Notes under the pieces: model-generated
Told to the model about the DNA's origin: nothing
Seen by the model: the letters and a program-made list of their open reading frames with translations, nothing else
Database searches by the model: none
Position numbers and translations under genes: made by a program
Part shown: positions 44,043-62,251 of the stretch, one piece after another
Numbering within the stretch: position 1 is the stretch's first letter
How the letters are laid out: every line of letters begins with the position of its first letter
Assembly: GCA_965243395.1 (NCBI GenBank)
Contig: CBDEUS010000002.1
Span: 64,001-128,000, forward strand
Reading direction: 5' to 3'
Length of the DNA stretch: 64,000 nucleotides
Origin: Gammaproteobacteria bacterium
GTDB taxonomy: Bacteria > Pseudomonadota > Gammaproteobacteria > UBA4575

Positions 44043-44726
44043 TTATACTTTTAAATAGCGATCGATAAGATCATCGTTTAGTTCGTTTATCTTTCCTCCC
44101 GCCATCATGGAGCCTTTTTCCATAATGCTGAAATCACTTGCTACTTTTCTGGCGAAAGGTAATTTTTGTTCTACTAATAATACAGTCAAGCCAAGATCTT
44201 TATTCAGTTTGTTTATGATATCGCCTATTTCTGAAACAATATTAGGCTGAATACCTTCCGTGGGTTCATCCAGAATTAAGAGCTCAGGCTCTATTGCCAA
44301 TGCCCTGCCAATTGCCAACTGCTGCTGTTGCCCTCCTGACAAATCTCCGCCTCTACGATTTAACATTTCTTTTAATACTGGAAATAGCTCATATATTAAT
44401 GTGGGTAATTTTTTACCTGATGCAATTAATCCTGTTGCTAAATTTTCCTCAACGGTTAACTGTGAAAATATTTCTCTACCTTGAGGAACATATGCAATTT
44501 TGTGACGAGCTCGTTGCTCTGAGGGTTTGGATGAAAACTCAATTCCATTAAATTTAATTTCTCCATTTTTAACTGGCTCTAGACCCATAATACATTTAAG
44601 AAGTGTTGTCTTACCGACTCCATTTCTTCCCATTAAACACATGCACGCCCCTTTCTCGATTTCCATATCGATATTCCAAAGCGTATGACTTTCACCATAA
44701 TAATGATCAAGATTGCTAATTTTCAC
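44043..44726 (-). CDS. urtE: urea ABC transporter ATPase UrtE
   Basis: YYGESHTL, GRNGVGKTT, DEPTEGIQPN; upstream of urease. Confidence 0.92.
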   Translation of the reverse strand: MKISNLDHYYGESHTLWNIDMEIEKGACMCLMGRNGVGKTTLLKCIMGLEPVKNGEIKFNGIEFSSKPSEQRARHKIAYVPQGREIFSQLTVEENLATGLIASGKKLPTLIYELFPVLKEMLNRRGGDLSGGQQQQLAIGRALAIEPELLILDEPTEGIQPNIVSEIGDIINKLNKDLGLTVLLVEQKLPFARKVASDFSIMEKGSMMAGGKINELNDDLIDRYLKV

Positions 44727-45508
44727 TGTTCACCCAAATATACTTCGATCACTTTTTGATTATTTTGCACGCTGTCCATAGAACCCTCCGCCAATACACT
44801 GCCTTGATGTAGCACAGTTACTCGGTTAGCTAGTGAGCGTACAAATTCCATATCATGTTCCACCACTACTACAGAATGTTTTTCAGCAAGCTTTGTTAAC
44901 AGCTCCGCAGTATGTTCTGACTCTTGTTTAGTCATTCCTGCAACAGGCTCATCCACCAACAGTAGTTTAGGGTTTTGCATAAGCAACATGCCTATTTCTA
45001 ACCATTGCTTTTGTCCATGCGAAAGTTCGCCTGCTTCACGAGATAAATAATCTTGCAAGGCAATAATTTCGAGTACCTCATGAATTCTATCGTTGTCTTC
45101 AGCTGTTAATTTGAAAAATAAATTTTCAAATACTTTTCTTCTACCTTCCAAAGCGAGTTTTAAATTTTCAAAAACGGTATGATTTTCAAATACAGTGGGC
45201 TTTTGAAATTTACGACCAATCCCTAAATTAGCAATATCCGCTTCACTGGTTACGGTAAGATCTGTCATGTCATCGAAAATGACTCTTCCCTCATCCGGTC
45301 GTGTTTTGCCTGTGATGATATCCATCATGGTTGTTTTACCGGCACCATTGGGTCCGATAATACTTCTTAACTCATTTTTATTTACATAAAGGCTCAAATT
45401 GTTTATTGCTTTAAAGCCATCAAAACTTACTGTCACACCATCCAGATATAGAATACTTTCATCAGGCAAATGTAATGCAGAGGGTTCTTGAACACTTGGA
45501 ATAGTCAT
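44723..45508 (-). CDS. urtD: urea ABC transporter ATPase UrtD
   Basis: VSFDGFKA, GRKFQKPTVF, LSHGQKQWLEIGM. Confidence 0.92.
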   Translation of the reverse strand: MTIPSVQEPSALHLPDESILYLDGVTVSFDGFKAINNLSLYVNKNELRSIIGPNGAGKTTMMDIITGKTRPDEGRVIFDDMTDLTVTSEADIANLGIGRKFQKPTVFENHTVFENLKLALEGRRKVFENLFFKLTAEDNDRIHEVLEIIALQDYLSREAGELSHGQKQWLEIGMLLMQNPKLLLVDEPVAGMTKQESEHTAELLTKLAEKHSVVVVEHDMEFVRSLANRVTVLHQGSVLAEGSMDSVQNNQKVIEVYLGEQ

Positions 45509-45512
45509 AACA

Positions 45513-46655
45513 TTAACCTACATTTACTTTTTTTGTGTCGGGTTCAATAGGTTTACTAGACTTTGTCGCAAAGTTTTTAACTGCTCCTACAATTCCTTTT
45601 GGCAAAAACAGCGTCACAAAAACAAACAGGCCGCCTAACATGAACAACCAAACCTCGGGAGCAGCCGCAGTGAAATATGTTTTAGCGAAATTAACCACTA
45701 CTGCACCTAAGGCAGCACCATACAGTGTGCCTCTTCCCCCAATGGCCACCCAAATCACCATTTCGATTGAATTGATTGGTGAAAATTCACCTGGGTTAAT
45801 AATGCCAACCTGCGGAACATAAAGCGCGCCTGCAAGGCCTGCTAACATGGCAGCTACTACAAAGACGAATAATTTGATGTATTCATCTCTATAACCTAAA
45901 GCGCGCACCCTACCTTCCGAGTCACGTATAGCGGTTACCAGACTTCCAAGTCTTGATTGCACAATAAACTTACAAATCAGGTAACCAAAAATTACCGCAA
46001 GACCTGAACAAATGAATAGCACAACTCGTGTTGCATCAGACTGAAGATCAAATCCTAAAATATCTTTAAAGTCTGTGAGTCCGTTGTTACCGCCAAAACC
46101 AAAATTATTTCTAAAAAATGCAAGCATGAGTGCATACGTTAACGCTTGAGTAATGATGGATAAATAAACTCCCGTTACCCTGGAGCGAAATGCAAGCCAC
46201 CCAAATACAAAAGCAAGCAAACCGGGTACAAAGAAAATCATAATGAAAGCAAACCAAAACATATCAAAGCCATACCAGAACCATGGCAACTCTTTATAAT
46301 TCAAGAAAACCATAAAATCCGGTAATACTGGGTGGCCATAAACACCGCGATCACCAATTTGCCTCATGAGATACATCCCCATTGCGTACCCACCTAATCC
46401 AAAAAATGCTCCATGTCCTAAACTCAAAATTCCCAAATACCCCCAAACGAGATCTAAAGAAATTGCGAGTAATGCGTAGGTTAAATATTTGCCAACCAAG
46501 GTAACAACGTAAGTAGACATGTGAAATACAGATGTCTCTGGCACAACTAAATTGCAGAAAGGGACTATCACCATAAGAGCTAAAATAACTGCTAGAAAGT
46601 AGCGACCTCCTTTATCGATTTCTAATAAACGAAAAATGATGGGCTTGTATTTCAT
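45513..46655 (-). CDS. urtC: urea ABC transporter permease UrtC
   Basis: WGYLGILSLGHGAFF, LPDFMVFL, GFGGNNGLTDFK. Confidence 0.92.
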   Translation of the reverse strand: MKYKPIIFRLLEIDKGGRYFLAVILALMVIVPFCNLVVPETSVFHMSTYVVTLVGKYLTYALLAISLDLVWGYLGILSLGHGAFFGLGGYAMGMYLMRQIGDRGVYGHPVLPDFMVFLNYKELPWFWYGFDMFWFAFIMIFFVPGLLAFVFGWLAFRSRVTGVYLSIITQALTYALMLAFFRNNFGFGGNNGLTDFKDILGFDLQSDATRVVLFICSGLAVIFGYLICKFIVQSRLGSLVTAIRDSEGRVRALGYRDEYIKLFVFVVAAMLAGLAGALYVPQVGIINPGEFSPINSIEMVIWVAIGGRGTLYGAALGAVVVNFAKTYFTAAAPEVWLFMLGGLFVFVTLFLPKGIVGAVKNFATKSSKPIEPDTKKVNVG

Positions 46656-46657
46656 TT

Positions 46658-48289
46658 TTAACTTTCTGCCGCTCTACCCTTAAGTGCAAACATGCCTCTT
46701 GGATACTTTTGTATAAATAAAATAATAAAAATAAGCACGAGAATTTTTGCAAACACAGCGCCCGTAAAGGGTTCCATAAATTTGTTAGCGATTCCTAATG
46801 TCATGGCGCCAAAGAATGTTCCCCATAAATTTCCAACACCACCAAAGACAACAACCATGAATGAATCAACAATGTAAGCCTGTCCTAAATTTGGCCCCAC
46901 GTTTGTAAGCTGGCTAAGTGCCACACCACCAACACCTGCAATTCCAGAACCCAAACCAAAAGTTAGTGAGTCAACCCAGTTGGTTCGGATGCCCATTGCT
47001 TTAGCCATGTTGCGATTCTGGGTTACCGCGCGCATTTGTAACCCAAATGAAGTTTTCTTAAGTAACCACAGCAACGCAAATAAAACCAATAAGGCAAACA
47101 AAACAATGTACATTCTGTTATAGGTAAGAGATAAAGCCGGATTGAATTCATATGACCCGCTCATCCAATCCGGTGTAATCACAGAACGATTAAGCGGTGA
47201 AAAGATTGATCGAACCGCCTGTTGCAGAATTAAACTTAAACCAAATGTCGCCAATAAAGTTTCAAGAGGTCTGCCATATAAATATCGAATGATCCCACGC
47301 TCTATACCTATCCCTACTAAACCTGTAAATATAAATGCAGCCGGAATAGCGATGAATAATGAATATTCAATCGAATTTGGCATGAGTTGCTGAATGACAA
47401 ACGTCGTATAGGCACCCAGCATTAACATTTCTCCATGAGCCATATTAATTACACCCATTACACCAAACGTTATCGCCAAGCCCACTGCCGCAAGCAGTAA
47501 GACTGATCCTAAACTCAAGCCAAAAAAGATATTTTCGATTTGTTTATAAAATCCCTTCTTAAGTTTCGTGGACTGTATGGACTCATCTAATGCTTCTAGA
47601 AGTTCTGTATCTTTTTCAGGTTTTGCAAGTTGTTCAGCATTTAATTTATCAAGCAAAATACCAATCTCTGGATAAAGAGATCCTGACAATGATTTTATGG
47701 CATGAACTTGTGTGTCTCGATCATCAGATTGCGCATCCACTGCGTGGATACAAATTTGCATAAGCTGTCTAACGTCTTCATCAGATTCCTGCTTGACTGC
47801 GTTTCTTATTATTTCGATTGACGATGGATTAAGATTTTTTAAGATATTTCTTGTTGCTTGTAAGCGAGTTTCTTTATTTTCGCTATAAATAGTTAGCGCT
47901 GCTATTTTTTCATTTAACAAGCCGCGTAATTTATTATTTATTCCTACTTTTCTAAGCTCTTTCTTTTTCTTTTCACCTAACGCTTCATTATTTATTGGAT
48001 CAAATGTTTTAAAATTTTTTGAATTAATCTTTTCAATTTTGACAACTTGTTTGTCTTTTTTTCCGTAATACAACTTCCCATCTAATAAGTTAGATAAGAT
48101 ACTCAGCGCAGACGGATGCCCAGAATCAGAAATAGCATCAATTGCTTTTGTTTTATCTGAAAAGCTTTTGGAAGTTAAAAGCTCAAAACTGCCTTCAAGT
48201 GAGTTGATATTTTCAGAAGACTCACTTGCAAATAAATTGTGTGTCGAGAACACAAAAAGCAACAGCATTACAGAGTAAAGCTTCATCAT
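46658..48289 (-). CDS. urtB: urea ABC transporter permease UrtB (long form with periplasmic N-terminal domain)
   Basis: INNKLR, GLAITFGVMGVINMAHGE, RPLETLLATFG. Confidence 0.92.
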   Translation of the reverse strand: MMKLYSVMLLLFVFSTHNLFASESSENINSLEGSFELLTSKSFSDKTKAIDAISDSGHPSALSILSNLLDGKLYYGKKDKQVVKIEKINSKNFKTFDPINNEALGEKKKKELRKVGINNKLRGLLNEKIAALTIYSENKETRLQATRNILKNLNPSSIEIIRNAVKQESDEDVRQLMQICIHAVDAQSDDRDTQVHAIKSLSGSLYPEIGILLDKLNAEQLAKPEKDTELLEALDESIQSTKLKKGFYKQIENIFFGLSLGSVLLLAAVGLAITFGVMGVINMAHGEMLMLGAYTTFVIQQLMPNSIEYSLFIAIPAAFIFTGLVGIGIERGIIRYLYGRPLETLLATFGLSLILQQAVRSIFSPLNRSVITPDWMSGSYEFNPALSLTYNRMYIVLFALLVLFALLWLLKKTSFGLQMRAVTQNRNMAKAMGIRTNWVDSLTFGLGSGIAGVGGVALSQLTNVGPNLGQAYIVDSFMVVVFGGVGNLWGTFFGAMTLGIANKFMEPFTGAVFAKILVLIFIILFIQKYPRGMFALKGRAAES

Positions 48290-48319
48290 TTGAGCCTGGA
48301 TTTGTTATTATTTTAATTG

Positions 48320-48347
48320 GCGCCACCCCCTCAGTAGAGGATGGCGC
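48320..48347. other. GC-rich hairpin after urtA
   Basis: gcgccaccccctc-agta-gaggatggcgc imperfect stem. Confidence 0.5.
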
Positions 48348-48397
48348 AAGTTTGATTATAGTTTAAGAACAACTATATTTTTAGGGGGATACTGTGT

Positions 48398-49687
48398 TTA
48401 GTAATTCTGACCTGAGCATTTTTTAGTCTCAGTATTGTAATTACCGCAGTTAATGGGATCAGTCCAGTCTGCAACAATAATCTTGCTTTCTGGTAACCAA
48501 TCCGTCCAAGCATCTCCTTCAACTTCACCATCAGTCGACCAAACAATATCAAATTGACCGTCATCTTGAATCTCACCGATTAAGACTGGCTTTGATAAGT
48601 GATGGTTGGGGTGCATGATAGCCGTTCCACCCGTTAGATTAGGTACTTCAATTCCGTATAACGCGGGGCGCACGGTATCAACATCGGTAGAACCTACTTT
48701 CTCAACCGCTTTTGCCCACATCTTGAAACCGATATAGGTCGCTTCCATTGGATCATTTGTTACACGATCTTCATCACCAATAAATCCGTGCCATGCTTCA
48801 ATGAATTCGTCGTTTACTTCAGACTCAGCACTCATGAAGTAATTCCAGGCTGCTAAGTGTCCAACCAAAGGACCAGTATCAATACCAGATAGTTCTTCTT
48901 CACCTACTGAAAATGCAACAACTGGAATGTCCTCTGCAGACAAGCCCTGGTTACCAAGTTCTTTGTAGAACGGAACATTTGCATCACCATTAATGGTCGA
49001 AACCACAGCAGTTTTCTTTCCTGCTGATCCAAAAGATTTAATGTCTGAAACAATGGTTTGCCAGTCAGAATGTCCGAATGGCGTGTAGTTAATCATGATG
49101 TCTTCTTCAGCAACACCTTTTTGCTTTAAGTAAGACTCCAGAATTTTGTTAGTCGTACGTGGATATACATAATCCGTACCCGCTAATACCCAACGTTCTG
49201 CACCTACTTCATTCATTAAATAGTCAACAGCTGGAATTGCCTGTTGGTTTGGTGCAGCACCTGTATAGAAAACATTTTTAGAAGACTCTTCACCTTCATA
49301 CTGAACTGGATAAAAAAGCAATCCATTCAACTCTTCTACAACGGGTAATACGGATTTACGTGATACTGAAGTCCAGCAGCCGAATATCACATCGACTTTA
49401 TGTACTTCGATTAATTCACGCATTTTTTCCGCAAATAATGGCCAGTCTGATGCCGGATCAACAACAACCGCTTCGAGTTCCTTTCCTAGTAATCCACCGG
49501 CTTTATTCTGTTCTTCTACCATCATTAAAACCGTATCTTTAAGTGTGGTTTCACTAATTGCCATGGTCCCTGATAACGAATGCAAAACCCCAACTTTAAT
49601 TATATCGGCAGACAAACCAATCTGAGGTATAAACATGATTAGTACTGCCATGAGTATTGTTTTAAACAAGGGCACTTCTTTCCTCAT
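48398..49687 (-). CDS. urtA: urea ABC transporter substrate-binding protein UrtA
   Basis: VGVLHSLSGTMAISE, DPASDWPLFAE, FGCWTSVSRK, YPVQYEGEE. Confidence 0.93.
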   Translation of the reverse strand: MRKEVPLFKTILMAVLIMFIPQIGLSADIIKVGVLHSLSGTMAISETTLKDTVLMMVEEQNKAGGLLGKELEAVVVDPASDWPLFAEKMRELIEVHKVDVIFGCWTSVSRKSVLPVVEELNGLLFYPVQYEGEESSKNVFYTGAAPNQQAIPAVDYLMNEVGAERWVLAGTDYVYPRTTNKILESYLKQKGVAEEDIMINYTPFGHSDWQTIVSDIKSFGSAGKKTAVVSTINGDANVPFYKELGNQGLSAEDIPVVAFSVGEEELSGIDTGPLVGHLAAWNYFMSAESEVNDEFIEAWHGFIGDEDRVTNDPMEATYIGFKMWAKAVEKVGSTDVDTVRPALYGIEVPNLTGGTAIMHPNHHLSKPVLIGEIQDDGQFDIVWSTDGEVEGDAWTDWLPESKIIVADWTDPINCGNYNTETKKCSGQNY

Positions 49688-51001: not shown

Positions 51002-52402
51002 TTAAACGTGAACTTTAATCCACCTATTTTGACGAAAAATTATCAATGAAATAACAGCCATAAGGCTTTCCGCAATAAAGATGGCCCAGAAAACACCATC
51101 GGGATGCTCAAGAACCTTCAATGAAAACCAGTATGCAAATGGGATCTGAATTATCCAAAAACAAATAATATTTATCCAAGTGGGTGTATAGGTGTCACCC
51201 GCACCGTTAAAGGCTTGTATCATTGCCAATCCCAACCCATACAACCCAAAACCGTAACTTAAAATACGCAAACATTTAGCACCAATATCAATGACATCTG
51301 CTTCATGAGTAAACAACCCGATAATAAATTCAGGAATTACAATAAATACAAAAGAAATTAAAATCATTAAAGCAACGTTGTATTTAGTAACTTGATAGAC
51401 CGCCTGTTTTGCTCTTTCTGTATTTTTTGCACCCAAATTTTGGCCGACTAATGTTGATACCGAATTACTCAAACCCCATACGGGCATAATAATAAAATCG
51501 ATAACACGTATAGCAATGGTGTAACCCGCAAGTGCTGTACTGCCAAATTCCGCGATTATTTTCATTAAAAAAATCCAACTCGATGTGGCAATAAAAAATT
51601 GCAAAATTCCACCTATGGATACTTTTACCAATAACACGAGTTCATCAATAACGAGGGTCAAATCTTTAAATGCTAATTGAATTCTTGAAGAACCTTTATA
51701 CAAACTGTAAGCCACATACACTATTCCAATACCGCGCCCAAAAGTTGTGGCAATCGCAGCACCTTCTATACCCAACTTTGGAAAAGGACCTATGCCAAAA
51801 ATCAAACACGGGTCTAAAAAAATGTTAATGATGCTTGCTATCCAAATTGCTTTCATAGCAATAACAGGATTCCCTGCGCCCCTGCATATTCCATTTAAAA
51901 TAAATAACAACAGAATGGTTGCAGACCCGCCGAGCATAATAGCGGTATAACCATAATACTCATTTATGATTGTTTCAGAGGCGCCTACAAACGATAAAAT
52001 ATCTTTTGCAAATACGAAGCCACAAACTCCTATCACAATAGAAAGCACGATGCCTAACAATATTGATTGTCCGGCTAGTACTTTCGCACGTTGTATTTCA
52101 TTTTCACCAATTCTTCTTGCCACTAGTGCTGTTACAGAAATGCTCAATCCAATTCCAATGGCATACAACAATGTAATCACGGCTTCCGTGATTCCCACCG
52201 TAGCCACAGCTTCGGTTCCAAGTTTGGCAACAAAGAAAATATCCGTGATCGCAAACAGGGCCTCTATAGAAGTTTCCAACATCATCGGAATCGCAAGAAG
52301 CACAACTGCTTTATTCAAAGGAATACGTGTATAGTCATACTCATCACCCTGCAACGCAGACTTAACGAGCGCCCACCAATTCATTTGTTCAATCGTTTTC
52401 AT
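51002..52402 (-). CDS. MATE family efflux transporter
   Basis: LAIPMMLE, DIFFVAKLG, NIFLDPCLIFG, LGIEGAAIAT, VGQNLGA; ATGA overlap with the upstream EamA gene. Confidence 0.92.
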   Translation of the reverse strand: MKTIEQMNWWALVKSALQGDEYDYTRIPLNKAVVLLAIPMMLETSIEALFAITDIFFVAKLGTEAVATVGITEAVITLLYAIGIGLSISVTALVARRIGENEIQRAKVLAGQSILLGIVLSIVIGVCGFVFAKDILSFVGASETIINEYYGYTAIMLGGSATILLLFILNGICRGAGNPVIAMKAIWIASIINIFLDPCLIFGIGPFPKLGIEGAAIATTFGRGIGIVYVAYSLYKGSSRIQLAFKDLTLVIDELVLLVKVSIGGILQFFIATSSWIFLMKIIAEFGSTALAGYTIAIRVIDFIIMPVWGLSNSVSTLVGQNLGAKNTERAKQAVYQVTKYNVALMILISFVFIVIPEFIIGLFTHEADVIDIGAKCLRILSYGFGLYGLGLAMIQAFNGAGDTYTPTWINIICFWIIQIPFAYWFSLKVLEHPDGVFWAIFIAESLMAVISLIIFRQNRWIKVHV

Positions 52403-53310
52403 GATGCTTTACAACTTTTACAATTAAGTTCATTGCCTGCACATAGTTTTGAAGATGACTTATTTGCAGGTAATTCAAAAAGAGCTAATCCAAACAAAAT
52501 GAGCCCTCCACCAACAAAGATGGAAACCGATAGAGGCTCATTATTTAAATAAGAACCCAGTAGTAAGGCACACACCGGTGTTATTAATGCTATGAGTGAA
52601 ACTTTCACTGCATTTAACTTATTCAATATGTAGTAATACATTGAAAAACCGGCCGCAGTCGCGATAGCCCCTAAATACAAAATCGAGAGAACAGGTCGAG
52701 TAGTAAAATTGCCAACGGACTCACCCGATAATAAAAAAGTCACCATGATTAATGGTACGGCTACAAGCAAACCTCCAAACGTAGATTGTGTTCCTGTAAT
52801 AGGTGCATTGATTTTCTTCAGAATCACAGCACTTGTAGCATGCGCAACTGTACTCATTAGCATGGCAAGCACACCAAATATTGAATGGATACCCATAGCA
52901 GCACTGGTATGAAAAATTACAATTAACCCAATAATTCCTAAAACCATTCCAAGTGTTTTATATTTTGTGAAATGGTTTTCATCTAATAAGACAATCGAAG
53001 CAACACCCGTGAAAATGGGGGATAAACCAAAAATCACAGAGATCCATCCAGATGGAATGTATTGAGCACTCCAATATACAAGTGACATCGCAAAATAAAT
53101 TCCCAAACCAGCAGCCAGATAGGCAACACAAGCTTGCATATTGAAAATTAGCTTTTGTCTGGAAACAGCAAATAATACGCCCAGCACAACAAGACCGAGA
53201 CTCATACGAGACATCAGTCCAAATAACATTCCAGATTCAATGCTCCACTGGATAGCAAGAGGAGTAGTACTCCAAATCAGCATGACAGATATATAAGTTG
53301 TTTTAACCAT
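52399..53310 (-). CDS. EamA/DMT family transporter
   Basis: IWSTTPLAIQWS, ~10 TM, two EamA halves; ATG at 53310 preferred because the track's TTG start lies inside the terminator T-run. Confidence 0.88.
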   Translation of the reverse strand: MVKTTYISVMLIWSTTPLAIQWSIESGMLFGLMSRMSLGLVVLGVLFAVSRQKLIFNMQACVAYLAAGLGIYFAMSLVYWSAQYIPSGWISVIFGLSPIFTGVASIVLLDENHFTKYKTLGMVLGIIGLIVIFHTSAAMGIHSIFGVLAMLMSTVAHATSAVILKKINAPITGTQSTFGGLLVAVPLIMVTFLLSGESVGNFTTRPVLSILYLGAIATAAGFSMYYYILNKLNAVKVSLIALITPVCALLLGSYLNNEPLSVSIFVGGGLILFGLALFELPANKSSSKLCAGNELNCKSCKAS

Positions 53311-53329
53311 TAGTAATTTTTCATAAGGC

Positions 53330-53363
53330 AAAAAAAAGGCCGCTAGTTTTACCTGCGGCCTTT
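53330..53363 (-). terminator. intrinsic terminator/attenuator in the EamA leader
   Basis: Minus strand AAAGGCCGC-AGGTAAAACTA-GCGGCCTTT-TTTTT, ending ~20 nt before the EamA ATG. Confidence 0.85.
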
Positions 53364-53386
53364 CGAAACGAATTCTTTGATTCAGC

Positions 53387-53470
53387 TCAACATAAACACA
53401 CAGGCAAGGAATTATCTGGACGCACTACCAGATCCCAAGTGATTTTTAGTTTTGTGGCTGAAATATTCAT
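53387..53470 (-). CDS. candidate leader peptide MNISATKLKITWDLVVRPDNSLPVCLC*
   Basis: Manual translation; the ATG lies 7 nt after the -10 box (leaderless) and the stop lies 23 nt before the terminator. Confidence 0.65.
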   Translation of the reverse strand: MNISATKLKITWDLVVRPDNSLPVCLC

Positions 53471-53477
53471 GGCGCGA

Positions 53478-53505
53478 ATTCTACATTTACATAATGCCAA
53501 GTCAA
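53478..53505 (-). promoter_or_regulatory. sigma70 promoter
   Basis: TTGACT-16 nt-TAGAAT followed by GC-rich discriminator TCGCGCC. Confidence 0.7.
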
Positions 53506-53763: not shown

Positions 53764-55743
53764 TTAGGCAGCAATACTATTAATATTTTCTACAGTATAT
53801 CGATCATCAATTGGCAAAGTAAAAATAAATGTAGATCCTTCGTTTGGTTTTGATTCTAATGTGATTTTTCCCCCATGTCGCTCAACTATTTTCTTACAAA
53901 TAGACAATCCAATCCCTGTGCCAGGATATTTATCTCGTGTGTGTAATCGCTCAAATATTAAGAATATTTTTTCATGATGTTTTTCTTCTATACCAACACC
54001 ATTGTCTGTTATATAAAACTTCCAATATTCAGATTCTTTGCATGCTTTTATGTGGATTTTTGGTGGCTTACTGAGATTATACTTAATGGCATTACTTATA
54101 ATATTTTGAAAAACAGTTTTTATTTGCACTGGATCAGCGTAAATAGTTGGCATTTCATCCCATGAAATCAAAGAATATGTTTCATTAATTTTAATTTTCA
54201 GATCATTTTTAATCTGACGCAAAATTTTCTCAATCCATATGGATTCCTTTGGTGTATTTTGTGTATCTACACGAGAAAACTTTAATAACCCGTCAATTAG
54301 TGATTCCATTCTTGAGCAACCTGATAGAACATAATCAATGAATTTATCCGCATCTTTATCTAATTCATTTGAATATCGTTTTGATAATAACTTTGAATAA
54401 CTGCTTATAGCTCGTAATGGTTCTTGCAAGTCATGAGAGGCTACATAAGCAAATAAACTAAGATCTTCATTTGACCTTTTCAGCAATATTGATTGTTTTC
54501 TTAACTTCTCGTTTATAACTTTTCGTTCTGAAATTTGATTTTTTAATGTATCTAGTGCAAGAGATAACTTCGAAAATTCATCATTACCCGAGGTGTCGAT
54601 CTCAAAGTTTAAATTTTCTTTAGATAACATGTTTGTCACATCAGATAAATTTGAGAGTCTCAATACAATATCTTTATAAACAAATTTAACTATAATGAAT
54701 ATGAAAATAATAATTGATAAAAGAGCAATTAAATAAAAAATATACTTGCTAGTTAAAATTGTATTACTTAAAGTATTTGCTGAATTTTCAGTACTATCTT
54801 TTACAGATTCACTCAATTGATTTACATTTTCATTTATTTTTTTTGTCAATAAGAAATTTTCTCCGTGAATTTCGTATACTTTTTTATGTGTATTAATTAA
54901 ATTTAGTTTTAATTCAAATATGTCAGGTGTATCTTGCCCATATTTAATTAATGTTAAGATGTGTTTGCCTAATACATCTTGTAGCTGAAGCTCTTTATTG
55001 CTCACAACTTCTCTGGTAATCGCCCTCAGCGAATGATCAAATTCCTGCTCAATTCCTAAAACACTATTCCGAGTACTAGCCTCGTCAATCACTATCAAGT
55101 CTTTACGCAATTCAGCAGATCTGGCTATTAAATCAGAAATAACTTCAAGATTTAAAATGCTAGTCGTTGTATATTTCTCATATTCCTTTTTATTACGTAT
55201 TTCCTTTGTATGCTCAGAAATATCTGCTTTTACATTAATTTTCTTTAGTGATATTAATTGAGTTAATTTTTCTAATGCTTCACGCATCAAAATTGTTTCA
55301 TTATTATAATTAATTTGACGTTGTAAATTACTAGCTAACGCATTGTATTCAAGATTCAAATTAACTTCCAAGATAAGTAGCGTAGATTTTACATTTTTAA
55401 TTATTTCACTATATTGCAAATTATTTTTTAAGCCCTCAAGTTCGATATGCATATTATGAATAGATTCAAAAGATTCATCTGTTCTTGTATTTAATTCATA
55501 TATTGTTTTTGATTCACTCATTTTGATAGTTGACTGTGCAAGATCATGTGCATACGTAGACATGGTATTTACACTAACAAGCGCGGGGATAGAAGAATCA
55601 GTTAATGCATATTTAGATTCTTCAATTTTACGCAATATTACACTTGAAATAATTACAGTAATAATAACTAAAAATAATCCTATTGAAAAAAATAGGATTA
55701 GCTTTTGACTAATCTCAAAAGAATTAAACTTATTTAAAAGCAT
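53764..55743 (-). CDS. membrane sensor histidine kinase (long helical periplasmic domain, HAMP, Cph1-like HisKA/HATPase)
   Basis: Two TMs, FAYVASHDLQEPLR, NIISNAIKY, DNGVGI, GTGIGLSICKKIVERHGG. Confidence 0.92.
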   Translation of the reverse strand: MLLNKFNSFEISQKLILFFSIGLFLVIITVIISSVILRKIEESKYALTDSSIPALVSVNTMSTYAHDLAQSTIKMSESKTIYELNTRTDESFESIHNMHIELEGLKNNLQYSEIIKNVKSTLLILEVNLNLEYNALASNLQRQINYNNETILMREALEKLTQLISLKKINVKADISEHTKEIRNKKEYEKYTTTSILNLEVISDLIARSAELRKDLIVIDEASTRNSVLGIEQEFDHSLRAITREVVSNKELQLQDVLGKHILTLIKYGQDTPDIFELKLNLINTHKKVYEIHGENFLLTKKINENVNQLSESVKDSTENSANTLSNTILTSKYIFYLIALLSIIIFIFIIVKFVYKDIVLRLSNLSDVTNMLSKENLNFEIDTSGNDEFSKLSLALDTLKNQISERKVINEKLRKQSILLKRSNEDLSLFAYVASHDLQEPLRAISSYSKLLSKRYSNELDKDADKFIDYVLSGCSRMESLIDGLLKFSRVDTQNTPKESIWIEKILRQIKNDLKIKINETYSLISWDEMPTIYADPVQIKTVFQNIISNAIKYNLSKPPKIHIKACKESEYWKFYITDNGVGIEEKHHEKIFLIFERLHTRDKYPGTGIGLSICKKIVERHGGKITLESKPNEGSTFIFTLPIDDRYTVENINSIAA

Positions 55744-55950: not shown

Positions 55951-57426
55951 ATGAAATATAGCTTTTCAAAAAGTCGTCGAAATTTGATCAAAAATACTGT
56001 CTACGCAACAATAGCTTCGCAATTTTCATCTAATGCACTATTTGCAAGGTCTAACCAAGCTAAATTCATGCTTGAGAATTTAGATTCACAAATAGTAGAA
56101 CGGGTTAAAAAGATGACAAACGGTAAAGCGTTATCTTTATCAATTTTACAACCTAAAGGCTCGCTAGGAAATGTTAAACCTGTTGGGGATAAATTTTCAC
56201 AACTAACAGGAGTAAAGGTAAATTATATTGAAGCATCACTTGATGAAATAAATGTAAAGATACTATCTCAATCACTCTCTAATGAAACATATTTTGACAT
56301 ATCTCTTCCTGCTACTTTTGGATTACCTGATTTAATAGAAGCAGGTTCAATACGAGAATTAGATGAATTCGTTGAGAAATATGAACCGACTAATTTTGAT
56401 AGTGAAATGCTTTATCCTATTGGGGATTCCTATAAAGGTAAATTTTATGGATACCAAACTGATGGTGATACCTATTTAATGTTTTATAACAAAGTTTGGT
56501 TAGAAGATGAAACAGAACAAAATAATTTCTATGAAAAATATGGTTACCCGCTAGACACCCCTCAGACATGGGAACAACTTGATCAAATGATCGAATTTTT
56601 CCATCGGCCAGAGAAAAATATGTATGGTGGTGCTTTATATCGAAATAAAGATTACATTGCATGGGAATGGTGGACACGTTTTCACGCAAAAGGATATTAT
56701 CCTTTTAATAATTTGCTACAACCACAAATTAACACACAAGAAGGTGTTGACGCTCTTTCAGAATTAATTAAAACAACAAAATACTTATACCCTCAATCTA
56801 AAACGAATGGACTCTTTGAAAATTGGGAAGCATTTGCAGAAGGAAATATGTTTTGCAACATTGGCTGGGGAGGAACTCAAAAGTACTTAAATGGACCTAA
56901 ATCTAAAATTAAAGGTAAATTAGCTTTTGGACCTACTCCGGGTGGGATCGTAAATCATAAATTGCTGCATACCCCTTATTTCAACTGGGGATGGAATTAC
57001 ACAGTATCCAATTTTTCAAGACATCCTGAGATTGCATATTTATTTACGCTTTATGCATGCAGCCCGAATATGTCTACAGAGGCTGTTAAATTTGCGGATG
57101 GTTATTTTGACCCATTTCGCAGCGAACATTACGTTAACAAAGAAATTATCAAAACCTACTCTGAGCCATTTTTAGCTGCACATAAATTTAGTATGGAGAA
57201 TAGCATTCCTGATTTATATCTCTCAGGACAAGGAGAATATTGGGACATACTAAAAGAAAACATTGATCTAGCAGACCGTGGCACTCTTAGTCCCGAAATA
57301 GCATTAAATACAACGGCTAAAGCATGGAATCAAATTACTTCACGATATGGTAAACAAGAACAGTTAGAACAGTGGCGTTTCTTAAAAAGTAAGTATCCAG
57401 AAAATATAAGAACTAAACTAATTTAG
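55951..57426 (+). CDS. Tat-exported extracellular solute-binding protein (sugar SBP family 1-like)
   Basis: SRRNLIK twin-arginine motif, MFYNK, PQTWEQLDQMIEFF; no permease genes nearby. Confidence 0.8.
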   Translation: MKYSFSKSRRNLIKNTVYATIASQFSSNALFARSNQAKFMLENLDSQIVERVKKMTNGKALSLSILQPKGSLGNVKPVGDKFSQLTGVKVNYIEASLDEINVKILSQSLSNETYFDISLPATFGLPDLIEAGSIRELDEFVEKYEPTNFDSEMLYPIGDSYKGKFYGYQTDGDTYLMFYNKVWLEDETEQNNFYEKYGYPLDTPQTWEQLDQMIEFFHRPEKNMYGGALYRNKDYIAWEWWTRFHAKGYYPFNNLLQPQINTQEGVDALSELIKTTKYLYPQSKTNGLFENWEAFAEGNMFCNIGWGGTQKYLNGPKSKIKGKLAFGPTPGGIVNHKLLHTPYFNWGWNYTVSNFSRHPEIAYLFTLYACSPNMSTEAVKFADGYFDPFRSEHYVNKEIIKTYSEPFLAAHKFSMENSIPDLYLSGQGEYWDILKENIDLADRGTLSPEIALNTTAKAWNQITSRYGKQEQLEQWRFLKSKYPENIRTKLI

Positions 57427-57953: not shown

Positions 57954-59423
57954 ATGAATACAATCAAACTTATTGCTTTATCACTTTTTTCTTTATTTAT
58001 TCTATTTCCTTTTAATGCGTACGCAGCAACTGCATCACATGAAATACAAAATTTTACGACGCACTGGGCTGGAATTCTTGCATTAGTTATATTTGCAATT
58101 TCTTATTCTCTGGTAATTTTTGAAGAGCAATTACACTTAAGAAAATCCAAACCAGTACTTGTTTCTGCCGGTATAGTTTGGCTAATAGTTGCACTTGTAT
58201 ACATATCACATGGAGACACTCATACAGCTGAAGTATTAGTTCGTCATAATATTCTTGAGTTTGCAGAGTTGTTTTTATTCTTACTCGCTGCAATGACATT
58301 TATTAATACAATGTACGAGCGGGGGATATTTGACTGGCTGCGTGCATGGATGTTGAAAAAAGGATTTAGTCTACGAGGTGTGTTTTGGGCAACAGGTGTT
58401 GTTTCATTTTTCCTTTCACCCATAGCGGATAACCTTACAACAGCTTTACTTATGGCCACCGTCGCCATGGCTGTGGGTGGCACCAATATCAAGTTCACAA
58501 GTATCGCTTGTGTCAATATTGTCGTTGCCGCAAATGCCGGTGGTGCATTCAGCCCATTTGGTGATATCACCACATTAATGGTTTGGCAAAAAGGAATCGT
58601 TGAGTTCCAAGAGTTCTTTGTATTATTCATTCCATCAGTGGTGAATTGGATAATACCTGCAGTAATTTTAAGTTTCTTCATTTCTAACTCAAAACCAGAA
58701 AGTGTTCATAAAGAAGTCGTACTACGACAAGGTGCATGGATTGTAGTAATTTTATTTTTACTAACGATTGCAATGGCTGTATGCACACATAACTTCTTAC
58801 ACCTCCCTCCTGTCCTCGGCATGATGACAGGCTTAGGAATACTCAAGTTTTTTGGGTATTACTTAAAAATGACAGACAAAGACTCATTTGAAGGAGAAGG
58901 AATTGATGAGATTGAAGACGAAGCACTAGATATTGAAGATGATGCGACACCAGTAGAATATGAACAAAAAAGACTGCATGAAAAATTTGATATATTCAAA
59001 TCGATAGAACGTGCCGAGTGGGACACCCTCATGTTTTTTTACGGTGTTATTTTAAGCGTAGGTGGATTGGGTGCACTGGGTTACATGGCGCTAGGATCCG
59101 AATTAATGTATGAAGGGTTAGGTGCTACGAATGCAAATATTCTTGTAGGTTTCCTTTCTGCATTATTCGACAACATCCCAGTGATGTTTGCGGTACTCGC
59201 CATGGAACCGGCAATGAGCCATGGTCAATGGCTGCTTGTAACTTTAACCGCCGGTGTCGGTGGCTCTATGCTTTCTATTGGGTCGGCTGCAGGCGTTGCC
59301 GTAATGGGACAAGCACGCGGAATTTATACATTCTTTGCACATTTGAAATGGTCTTGGGCCATAGCACTCGGTTATGCCGCAAGTATATGGACACATTTTC
59401 TAGTGAATGGAAATTTATTTTAG
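57954..59423 (+). CDS. nhaD: NhaD-family Na+/H+ antiporter
   Basis: LRKSKPVL, ADNLTTALL, AANAGGAFSPFGDITTLMVW, DNIPV, GGSMLSIGSAAGV. Confidence 0.9.
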   Translation: MNTIKLIALSLFSLFILFPFNAYAATASHEIQNFTTHWAGILALVIFAISYSLVIFEEQLHLRKSKPVLVSAGIVWLIVALVYISHGDTHTAEVLVRHNILEFAELFLFLLAAMTFINTMYERGIFDWLRAWMLKKGFSLRGVFWATGVVSFFLSPIADNLTTALLMATVAMAVGGTNIKFTSIACVNIVVAANAGGAFSPFGDITTLMVWQKGIVEFQEFFVLFIPSVVNWIIPAVILSFFISNSKPESVHKEVVLRQGAWIVVILFLLTIAMAVCTHNFLHLPPVLGMMTGLGILKFFGYYLKMTDKDSFEGEGIDEIEDEALDIEDDATPVEYEQKRLHEKFDIFKSIERAEWDTLMFFYGVILSVGGLGALGYMALGSELMYEGLGATNANILVGFLSALFDNIPVMFAVLAMEPAMSHGQWLLVTLTAGVGGSMLSIGSAAGVAVMGQARGIYTFFAHLKWSWAIALGYAASIWTHFLVNGNLF

Positions 59424-59441
59424 CGATTAAAATTAATACTA

Positions 59442-60248
59442 ATGGTTAATCTAGATAATAATATTAAGAAAAAGAAGCTGAGTAAAAAATACTACCAAAA
59501 AGAATTACTACACTTACAAAAAGAACTCATCAAATTACAAGAATGGGTAAAACAAGAAAAATTACGTGTAGTAGTAGTATTTGAAGGACGCGATGCTGCG
59601 GGTAAAGGCGGTGTAATTAAACGCATTATGCAACACCTAAACCCACGTATATGTCATATTGTTGCACTCGGCACCCCTAGCGATCGTGAACGCAGTCAGT
59701 GGTATTTTCAACGCTATGTTGCGCATCTTCCTGCTGCCGGAGAAATCATGCTATTTGATCGCAGCTGGTACAACCGTGCAGGTGTGGAACGCGTAATGGA
59801 GTTTTGTAATGATGATGAATATTGGCAGTTTTTACGCGACTGTCCTCAGTTTGAAAGAATGTTAATTCAATCTGGCATCATTCTTCGAAAATATTGGTTC
59901 TCGGTCAGCAACGAAGAACAAGAACGTCGTTTTCAAGCAAGAAATAATGAGCCAACTAAACGCTGGAAACTCAGCCCAATGGATATTGAAGCACGCAACC
60001 GGTGGAATGACTATTCACGCGCCAAAGACATTATGTTCGATCATACAGATATTCGTGAAGCACCTTGGCATATTGTTGATGCAGATAATAAAAAACGTGC
60101 ACGTCTAAATTGTATAAGCCATCTACTTAGTTCAATTGACTACAAAGATCTAACACCAAAAGTGTCTAAGCTACCGACACGCGTTATAAAGAACAACTAT
60201 GTCCGTGCACCTATAAATAAAAATAATCTTGTTGACCAAGGTTATTAA
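59442..60248 (+). CDS. ppk2: polyphosphate kinase 2
   Basis: FEGRDAAGKGG, WYFQRY, FDRSWYNRAGVERVM, WKLSPMD. Confidence 0.95.
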   Translation: MVNLDNNIKKKKLSKKYYQKELLHLQKELIKLQEWVKQEKLRVVVVFEGRDAAGKGGVIKRIMQHLNPRICHIVALGTPSDRERSQWYFQRYVAHLPAAGEIMLFDRSWYNRAGVERVMEFCNDDEYWQFLRDCPQFERMLIQSGIILRKYWFSVSNEEQERRFQARNNEPTKRWKLSPMDIEARNRWNDYSRAKDIMFDHTDIREAPWHIVDADNKKRARLNCISHLLSSIDYKDLTPKVSKLPTRVIKNNYVRAPINKNNLVDQGY

Positions 60249-60481: not shown

Positions 60482-62251
60482 TTAATCGCTATGGTTTTCG
60501 CCATTAGTTACTTTTTGTTTTCTTGCTAGCGATTGCGTAAGTCCATTTAGACTTTCACCATCAATACCAATTTCACTTAACAAGGAATCAACAATTGGGG
60601 ACTGCACTTTATATTTAAGCGCACTGTTTACGACTTGGTCTGCAAGATTGGAGTCATCACCTTTACCTGTCCCAGATGACCCATTCCCATTTCCACCACT
60701 ACCGATAGAATTTAAACCATCAATTTGCATGATTTTAATTCCATCAATTTGTTCCATTGGTTTAACACTTTCACGAATGATGTCTGGCATATGTTTAACA
60801 ATTGCCATTTTCACCTGCATTTCAATTTGCTCTGCAGATAAAATATTACTTGCTTCATTGATAGAACGCTTACCTTCTGCATCGACCATATAGCGCATTT
60901 TGGCGGCATCAGCAGCAAGCTTTTCAGCATCTGCTGCACCTTGTGCCTCTATTCTTGCGCTATCTGAATCACCGACTGCTAGAGTTCGTACTGCCTCTGC
61001 CTTATCTTCGGCAGCTTGCTTTTCCGCCTCAGCAGCAACTGTGACAGTAATTGCTTCACGTTCTGCAATCTTTCTAGCTTCAATTAATTCGATTTGTTTT
61101 TGTCGATCTGCAATTTCCTGTTCTTGTGCTGTAACTACTCGCTCTTCTTCTTTTACGGCTTCTGCCCGTGCAATAGAGGCAGCAGCTTCGGCTTCAGATG
61201 TTTCCCTGGATTTCTCAGCAATCACAATAGCCCGATCTTGCTCGGCAAGTTCAACAGTTTTTATCTTATCGATGTCAGTAGTTTCAATTGCTTTGGCTTT
61301 TTGAATATCTTTTTCTTTGATTTGTCTATCTTTCTCGATTCTTTCTTCTTCAACAGCTCGTTCAGCAAGAATATTTGCTAAGTCTATTTTTTGTTGGGCA
61401 GTAATTTGTGCTTCTTCAGCTTCACGTTTTTTTCTAGCTTGTTCTGAAGCAATTTCCGCAGACTGGGCGGCTCTTTGTATTTCAATTTCACGCTGTTGTT
61501 CTAATCTTGCATATTCTTCTTCTTTACCAATTTCAAGCTTTTGTCTTTCAGCCTCAAGATCCTTAGTTTTTATAGCAACCATAGTATCTTGCTCTATTTC
61601 GTTCCTGCGCTTTTTACGTACTTCAATTTCTTCTGTAAGTTTTGTGAGACCCTCTGCATCAAATGCATTGTTAGGATTAAAATACTCTTTGCTTGTTTGG
61701 TCTAATCCAGTCAATGAGACAGCCTCTAATTCTAAACCGTTTTTAAGTAAGTCTTCTGATACTACTTGTTGCACTTTTTGAACAAAGTCCACACGTTGTT
61801 CATGTAACTCTGTCATCGCCATTTCGGCCGCAACAGCTCGCAATGCATCAACAAACTTACCTTCTACTAAATCTCTCAATGAGTCTGGCTTCATCGTGCG
61901 TAAACCAAGAGTTTGTGCAGCATAAGCTATAGATTCTTGATTTGGCTTAACACGAACATAGAACTCTGCTAACACGTCTACTCTCATTCTATCTCTTGTA
62001 ATCAATGCTTGTTCATTTGCGCGTCTTACTTCTAAGCGCAAAGTATTCATGTTAACGGGAATGATTTCATGGAGAACTGGAAACACTAATGCACCTCCAT
62101 TCATTACAACCTTTTGGCCGCCAAAACCTGTTCGCACAAAAGATACTTCTTTTGATGATCTTTTATATAAGCGCGCAAAAATTAAACCAATTGCAAAAAA
62201 AGCAAAAAGAATTATTCCCGCATAAATAACAATGTCATATAGTTGATACAT
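60482..62251 (-). CDS. flotillin/SPFH (YqiK-like) membrane protein
   Basis: FVRTGFGGQKV, NMNTLRLEVRR, NPNNAFDAEGLT, AE-rich coiled coil. Confidence 0.92.
   Translation of the reverse strand: MYQLYDIVIYAGIILFAFFAIGLIFARLYKRSSKEVSFVRTGFGGQKVVMNGGALVFPVLHEIIPVNMNTLRLEVRRANEQALITRDRMRVDVLAEFYVRVKPNQESIAYAAQTLGLRTMKPDSLRDLVEGKFVDALRAVAAEMAMTELHEQRVDFVQKVQQVVSEDLLKNGLELEAVSLTGLDQTSKEYFNPNNAFDAEGLTKLTEEIEVRKKRRNEIEQDTMVAIKTKDLEAERQKLEIGKEEEYARLEQQREIEIQRAAQSAEIASEQARKKREAEEAQITAQQKIDLANILAERAVEEERIEKDRQIKEKDIQKAKAIETTDIDKIKTVELAEQDRAIVIAEKSRETSEAEAAASIARAEAVKEEERVVTAQEQEIADRQKQIELIEARKIAEREAITVTVAAEAEKQAAEDKAEAVRTLAVGDSDSARIEAQGAADAEKLAADAAKMRYMVDAEGKRSINEASNILSAEQIEMQVKMAIVKHMPDIIRESVKPMEQIDGIKIMQIDGLNSIGSGGNGNGSSGTGKGDDSNLADQVVNSALKYKVQSPIVDSLLSEIGIDGESLNGLTQSLARKQKVTNGENHSD

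Follow-up and report, generated by a model that had tools for sequence, protein, structure and literature searches.

A conserved leader with a putatively leaderless upstream ORF precedes an EamA-family transporter gene and may act as a trp-like transcription attenuator

The locus described here lies within a 64000-nt stretch of DNA (the window, by which we mean the whole of the stretch analysed) and is read on its minus strand, where an EamA-family gene is preceded by a short upstream ORF (uORF) and an intrinsic terminator. Its features are as follows.

51002–52402, minus strand: MATE transporter gene, a genus-restricted partner, overlapping the EamA stop codon by 4 nt
52399–53310, minus strand: EamA/DMT-family transporter gene, 303 aa (PF00892; below all NCBIfam cut-offs)
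53330–53363, minus strand: predicted intrinsic terminator (folding); its 5′ arm and first loop bases (53363–53350) are the antiterminator 3′ strand
53387–53470, minus strand: leader uORF, 27 codons plus TGA (sequence and orthologous uORFs)
53390–53398, minus strand: Cys25-Leu26-Cys27 codons, of which Cys25 overlaps the antiterminator strand; terminal Cys is conserved only in the window's family
53394–53407, minus strand: antiterminator 5′ strand, codons 22–26, with its core at 53404–53399 (pairing and conservation)
53408–53436, minus strand: uORF hairpin, which takes in a smaller one noted previously (folding and conservation); candidate RNA-polymerase pause hairpin
53411–53440, minus strand: putative control region, codons 11–20, including W12 (53437–53435) and R17
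53471–53477, minus strand: GC-rich discriminator with C at −1 (promoter spacing and base composition)
53478–53505, minus strand: sigma70-type promoter, −35 at 53505–53500, 16-nt spacer, −10 at 53483–53478 (sequence; 10 of 12 consensus matches)

The physical parts that a sequence-only reading of this DNA had described were all found: the two promoter hexamers with their 16-nt spacer, a reading frame of 27 codons from the ATG at 53470 with Cys at codons 25 and 27, the terminator, the antiterminator pairing and the small uORF hairpin. The terminator has a predicted energy of −16.8 kcal/mol and a tail of eight U residues, and was overlooked by a simple terminator scan; the antiterminator duplex comprises 9 bp with two G-U pairs, at −11.3 kcal/mol as a duplex. 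The promoter is the best of eight promoter-like sites in 2 kb, but as shuffled sequences yield 9.5 of them, the scan by itself carries no weight. Among the 80 strict leaders defined below, a TTGACA-like hexamer (at least 5/6) lies 35–36 nt 5′ of the uORF ATG in 59 (range scanned 33–39 nt), and C is found at −1 in 67. As the window's ATG begins 7 nt past the −10 hexamer and is preceded by this C, transcription most likely starts at the A of the ATG itself, which would make the uORF leaderless; an SD-like word precedes the uORF in 1 of 62 leaders. Even where the genome is AT-rich, the discriminator keeps a high GC content (0.70 compared with 0.34–0.35 in the flanks of 18 low-GC leaders). Upstream of the leader, a histidine kinase gene without a receiver domain match (53764–55743, minus strand) diverges from a gene for a family 1 solute-binding protein (55951–57426, plus strand), and a simple scan called no terminator between the kinase and the leader promoter. 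The window also holds a complete urea ABC transporter operon, urtABCDE (44043–49687, minus strand; all above NCBIfam cut-offs), and, at 57954–60248 (plus strand) and 60482–62251 (minus strand), an NhaD antiporter, polyphosphate kinase 2 and a flotillin-like ORF, the last recognized by eye.

Several homologue searches were pooled to give 119 EamA orthologue loci; the orthologue is present in 13 of 56 genomes of the window's order and, class-wide, in 106 of 400, and one relative is 94% identical. A script found the family terminator with an upstream uORF of 20–45 codons at 94 of the 119 loci, 24 of the others being without a called terminator and one without a uORF, and this count is a floor because two of those 24 (L051 and L061) show the leader by eye. 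Leaders were counted as strict, 80 in all, if the uORF began with ATG and the −35 hexamer matched at five or more of six positions. The uORF has 26–37 codons in 78 of these and the stop codon lies 24–40 nt from the terminator arm in 78, ranges which were partly shaped by calling, since the script favoured a high promoter score and then a length near 31; the chance of a 26–37-codon length from a fixed ATG is approximately 0.12. Within the window's family the uORF indels are of 6 and 9 nt. Judged by this comparison, the leader is a real and widespread element. In other classes it was found at 27 of 45 loci, made up of 24 of 30 in a single family (judged from Mariprofundus names among the homologues to be probably Zetaproteobacteria) and 3 of 15 elsewhere; leaders are scattered across a quick EamA tree, in which some labels are mis-called. 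At four loci (L148, L158, L161 and L167), three of them alike, an extra 120–150 nt with inverted-repeat character lies between the terminator and the EamA start.

Neither a peptide profile nor a rough architecture scan found a second copy of the leader in the window's own genome. Near position 749623 of contig C1 of genome G000 (plus strand), a −35-like hexamer, a 10-codon ORF and a strong terminator precede a gene for a 353-aa protein; this terminator probably belongs to an upstream gene. No Rfam family reached its cut-off with the window leader, the best being Trp_leader RF00513 (18 compared with 41 bits, E value 1.4), a scan of ten related loci gave no matches, and the uORF peptides matched no family in Pfam or NCBIfam. 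We found no description of the leader family in the literature, comparative attenuator surveys and their supplements, where a table entry is possible, lying beyond our reach.

The 303-aa protein was not the equivalent of E. coli EamA (YdeD) that the sequence-only reading had taken it to be, as it scored 32.8 against the 472 bits of the NCBIfam equivalog PRK11453 (cysteine/O-acetylserine exporter). The proposed EamA-MATE operon is borne out in the window, where the two genes overlap by 4 nt, but MatE was found behind EamA in genus members only, twice among 65 downstream proteins scanned (of 118 extracted), both times in the same genus (g1). No trp or aro neighbours were found among these 65 proteins. 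A profile of 45 sequences found no solved structure, the single-sequence predicted fold was poor (pLDDT 49), Atlas names were generic, and a plasmid collection held no EamA relative. A pattern search of 401 genomes, from which 16 candidates were fetched, gave four true leaders before genes other than EamA, namely three lipoprotein-like alpha/beta hydrolases, from three genomes and three families, and one PRK03715 acetylornithine transaminase.

L196, 381–1229, plus strand: lipoprotein-like alpha/beta hydrolase under the leader
L197, 259–1164, plus strand: lipoprotein-like alpha/beta hydrolase under the leader
L199, 2743–3639, minus strand: lipoprotein-like alpha/beta hydrolase under the leader
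L198, 2214–3455, minus strand: PRK03715 acetylornithine transaminase, directly under the leader
L045, 2419–3693, plus strand: PRK03715 acetylornithine transaminase, behind EamA

The hydrolases gave weak NCBIfam matches only, including macrolide esterases far below cut-off, and are rare, with 3 of 241 genomes positive at E≤1e-45 (the third being L222). That PRK03715 genes generally stand under the leader was rejected, as two of six matches were linked to it and the other four had no leader in the 500 nt upstream.

Although the window leader folded alone gives a z-score of −2 only, conservation indicates that the fold is more than chance. In the 13 leaders of the window's family, all 78 of 78 cells of the 6-bp antiterminator core are paired, one change being two-sided, and the core includes loop bases that are dispensable for the terminator; the terminator itself is paired in 104 of 104 cells, and the uORF hairpin in 80%, with two-sided changes at four of its seven pairs. 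Class-wide, the duplex of an arm with its own leader is better than cross-pairings in 61 of 79 leaders, and in a test on 41 leaders, whose anchor was chosen without regard to the bases under test, covariation was clear at one of the four positions (29 of 41 paired compared with 19.9 in shuffles, P=0.0002), weak at two and absent at one. The uORF hairpin is stabler than synonymous recodings in 53 of 61 leaders and ends 4–10 nt 5′ of the antiterminator anchor in 55 of 61, which would fit a polymerase pause hairpin that synchronizes ribosome and polymerase. A protector helix is weakly indicated: the antiterminator strand is paired upstream at 0.77, compared with 0.66 in controls, and a candidate 5′ partner motif was not enriched (27 compared with 24.2).

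The effect of a ribosome was modelled on 62 leaders by masking a 28-nt footprint codon by codon, with the upstream RNA held unpaired. In this model the pairing of terminator arm with uORF averages 0.77–0.86 with the A site on codons 2–19, falls to 0.47 at codon 21 and is 0.13 at the stop codon, and the antiterminator is absent with the A site anywhere from codon 21–22 through the stop. The model thus agrees with the earlier claim that a ribosome on the last codons, here codon 21 to the stop, would cover the antiterminator strand. With upstream refolding allowed, the window leader regains a modelled 0.4–0.7 of pairing near the stop; in the ribosome-free state the antiterminator still forms (mean 0.71) and wins at equilibrium.

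The codons on which a ribosome might be slowed were sought in a reduced set, the 80 strict leaders having been cut to 77 (one mis-called uORF and two wrong terminator calls dropped) and then to 62 at 50% peptide identity; the peptides are highly divergent, 64 of 79 being left after dereplication at that identity. Trp is present in codons 11–20 of 51 of the 62 leaders, against 15.6 expected. All codon z-scores are overstated by kinship, as related genomes are not independent. With this in mind, codons 11–20 hold 54 Trp codons in frame, while the remaining two frames give 16 and 2 (z 9.7); Arg reaches z 7.0, and from codon 21 onward the enrichment of any residue stays within z 1.9. Lys, Val, Ile and Leu are likewise enriched in codons 11–20, Gly, Ser, Ala, Tyr, Cys and Asp are depleted, and Asp, Glu, Gly and Ser are almost missing. 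By these comparisons, codon-level selection sits in codons 11–20. Trp lies inside the modelled ON window in 51 of 59 leaders and piles up on its last three codons, with 32 occurrences at −2 to 0 from the edge compared with two at +1 to +4; in the other-class family all 24 of 24 leaders have it at codon 15 or 16. Ten of the 62 leaders have no Trp in codons 2–20. Where Trp is missing, Arg-Arg, Lys-Arg-Arg or Pro-Pro-Gly is found near the ON/OFF edge. Leader L112, with no Trp in the window of control codons, has Pro-Pro-Gly, a stall-prone triplet, at that edge, and two near-identical leaders (L053 and L056) differ at one control codon by Arg (CGG) and Trp (TGG). Two or more Trp codons anywhere in the uORF were found in 15 of 80 leaders; the window leader has one.

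Cys codons behave differently from Trp codons. From codon 21 onward they number 65 in frame compared with 60 and 59 out of frame, 19 of the 62 dereplicated leaders have none there and 7 of 77 have none at all, and the TGYG pairing motif falls in all three frames (11, 15 and 15) with no preference, so Cys near the uORF end mostly follows from the antiterminator strand. The comparison of orthologous upstream regions proposed with the sequence-only reading sustained its conserved uORF, pairing and terminator (at the 94 of 119 loci above) and not its terminal Cys codons, which end 12 of 13 leaders in the window's family (once as TGC) but 3 of 67 elsewhere, where two Cys in the last three codons were found in none of the 67. 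Cysteine sensing as a family mechanism thus lacks support, since many leaders have no Cys, the motif is frame-free and the selected codons are the upstream Trp and Arg; with inverted logic it is unlikely as the main mechanism. The model as first put, in which Cys shortage stalls the ribosome at the terminal Cys codons, masks the antiterminator and causes termination, while fast release gives read-through, we hold to be very unlikely as the main control, although the geometry of the stall model permits it. In a toy race between ribosome and polymerase, read-through falls 5- to 30-fold on slow Cys codons if the polymerase is also slow, but approximately 2- to 4-fold on a low baseline with the other two parameter sets, and the race overstates early release by ignoring that a ribosome cannot overtake polymerase. 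In addition, tested Cys attenuators rely on polycysteine tracts (10.1101/834739). On the toy-race result, the terminal Cys of the window's family is kept as a possible family-specific, secondary trim of basal read-through. The final ten uORF bases (53396–53387, minus strand) are invariant in eight of eight close relatives despite a 9-nt indel between them and the antiterminator core, for which pairing with the 5′ end, slow release at the stop or Cys sensing are candidate causes.

We therefore prefer, with a probability of about one half, to read the leader as a ribosome-mediated transcription attenuator of trp polarity, with Trp as the main and Arg as the helper control codon. Transcription would begin at the A of the uORF ATG and polymerase would probably pause behind the uORF hairpin until a loading ribosome melts it, after which the two would race. 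A ribosome that passes approximately codon 20 in time would cover the antiterminator strand, so that the terminator folds and EamA stays off; one slowed in codons 11–20 would allow the antiterminator to form and EamA, here with MATE, to be transcribed. The ribosome would lose most time at its one Trp codon, with Arg and further codons of this region adding to the delay, and for this reason the signal is most likely a lack of Trp-tRNA (and Arg-tRNA). In favour of this reading, L198 and L045, the leaders tied to acetylornithine transaminase, have Arg and no Trp among their control codons. A control region is defined likewise for trpL, where a stall on the Arg codon also prevents attenuation (PMC1183508). 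Both directions of transport would fit: uptake under shortage, or export of something that depletes Trp- or Arg-tRNA.

Several points weigh against so specific a signal. Ten Trp-less leaders, the small number with at least two Trp codons and the lack of trp or aro neighbours argue against Trp specificity, and a single Trp in a mixed window gives low sensitivity (PMC1183508). The Trp codon itself is in many cases a paired part of the uORF hairpin (mean 0.65), which may account at the RNA level for some of its conservation, and formation of the antiterminator without a ribosome in the model is unlike trp super-attenuation. The discriminator suggests repression by ppGpp, of which GC-richness at this position is a mark in E. 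coli (PMC8550359), and this sits badly with a response to starvation. With the assumed rates of the toy race, slowing translation twofold throughout is as effective in opening the switch as slowing the Trp codon 30-fold.

Together, the insensitive single Trp, the Trp-less leaders, the paired codon, the discriminator and the toy race raise the main rival, which we regard as less likely though serious, namely that the same switch with the same polarity senses translation speed in general. Any slow-down in the first 20 codons, or failed leaderless initiation, would open it, with ribosome-targeting antibiotics, cold or amino-acid imbalance as triggers; ppGpp would shut the promoter in true starvation, the Trp and Arg codons would only set the timer, and the target genes, exporter and hydrolase, would be a detoxification set. 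The modelled ON window does cover codons 2–19 and the ribosome-free state, a twofold general slowing gives approximately sixfold opening in two of three toy-race parameter sets, and the edge motifs of the Trp-less leaders and the lipoprotein hydrolases under the leader also favour it. CGA makes up 24 of 112 Arg codons in codons 11–20, but its share of Arg codons across the window's own genome is 18%. The +X+ motif, at which macrolide-sensing leaders arrest, was not enriched (20 of 62 observed compared with 25.5 shuffled), and general sensing leaves unexplained why Trp should be the one residue that two classes both retain at the edge of the ON window. Ligand-dependent nascent-peptide arrest is of the type known from TnaC and SpeFL. 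Here a metabolite, perhaps the EamA substrate, would stall the ribosome on a loose R-x-x-x-W, which is present in 24 of 62 leaders against 7.7 in residue shuffles, and the scarcity of Asp, Glu, Gly and Ser in codons 11–20 would be a peptide-level signature; we consider this unlikely, as the peptides are very divergent, Trp moves between codons 12 and 20 by clade at no fixed distance from the stop (S.D. 2.7 codons), and the window's own leader lacks the motif. That the uORF is incidental to an RNA-only switch, a riboswitch or protein-bound leader, seems most improbable: pairing does explain much of the family peptide conservation (Leu-Val..Pro, Pro-Val-Cys), but the ATG at +1, the near-constant uORF length and stop position, the in-frame indels, the strong frame-specific codon bias and the lack of an Rfam match all speak against it.

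Set beside known systems, the leader resembles E. coli trpL (RF00513) and the his, thr, leu, ilv and phe attenuators in having a uORF, a hairpin, an antiterminator strand within the uORF and a U-tailed terminator. With trpL it would further share read-through on an upstream stall, and it has a Trp codon adjoining Arg as trpL does (PMC1183508). It differs from trpL in its putatively leaderless start, its approximately 30 codons with usually one Trp in a mixed window, the lack of a dominant protector in the model and the control of a transporter rather than a biosynthetic operon; tandem Trp codons and trp biosynthetic genes, which mark trpL, were not found, the downstream gene being EamA. The leader would work like trpL-type attenuators yet, falling short of the RF00513 cut-off, is not a member of that family. 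Leader-peptide attenuation turns on efflux when translation is impeded in B. subtilis bmrB-bmrCD and P. aeruginosa PA5471.1-armZ (PMC4191407, PMC12057347), and these precedents favour general sensing; the present leader differs in its conserved Trp position and putatively leaderless start, and is likened to them by mechanism, not sequence. A link of P. aeruginosa PA0529–0531 to ribosome stress was not borne out in the literature found. Mycobacterial polycysteine sORFs use a leaderless uORF as sensor, as the present leader probably would, and likewise place several unrelated genes under one leader type (a ‘ribulon’), but act through Cys tracts and ribosome-binding-site access (10.1101/834739), whereas here transcription termination is at issue and there is no Cys tract.

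A further parallel is B. subtilis rtpA-ycbK, YcbK being an EamA-family protein. This system responds to uncharged tRNA-Trp and ycbK bears a TRAP site (PMC10327191), but its T-box, TRAP and translational control have no counterpart here.

A broader scheme, which we offer as rather doubtful, is a phylum-wide regulon of leaderless ‘ribosome timers’ that combine a ppGpp-repressed promoter with a window of Trp, Arg, Lys and branched-chain codons without Gly, Ser, Cys, Ala and acidic codons, so that an exporter of small amino acids would be on only when their excess starves other tRNAs. The terminal Cys of the window's family would then add a second input of opposite sign, closing the leak under Cys scarcity, and the leader would have been re-tuned to Arg before the transaminase and recruited by the lipoprotein hydrolase.

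The trp-polarity reading implies that a leaderless start and a single control codon are enough for attenuation. At approximately 170 nt, the leader is small enough for reporter testing, and the signal that opens the switch would point to the substrate of a widespread transporter subfamily. The leader represents a common regulatory RNA family, apparently uncatalogued, in lineages whose genomes are small and in which few attenuators are known.
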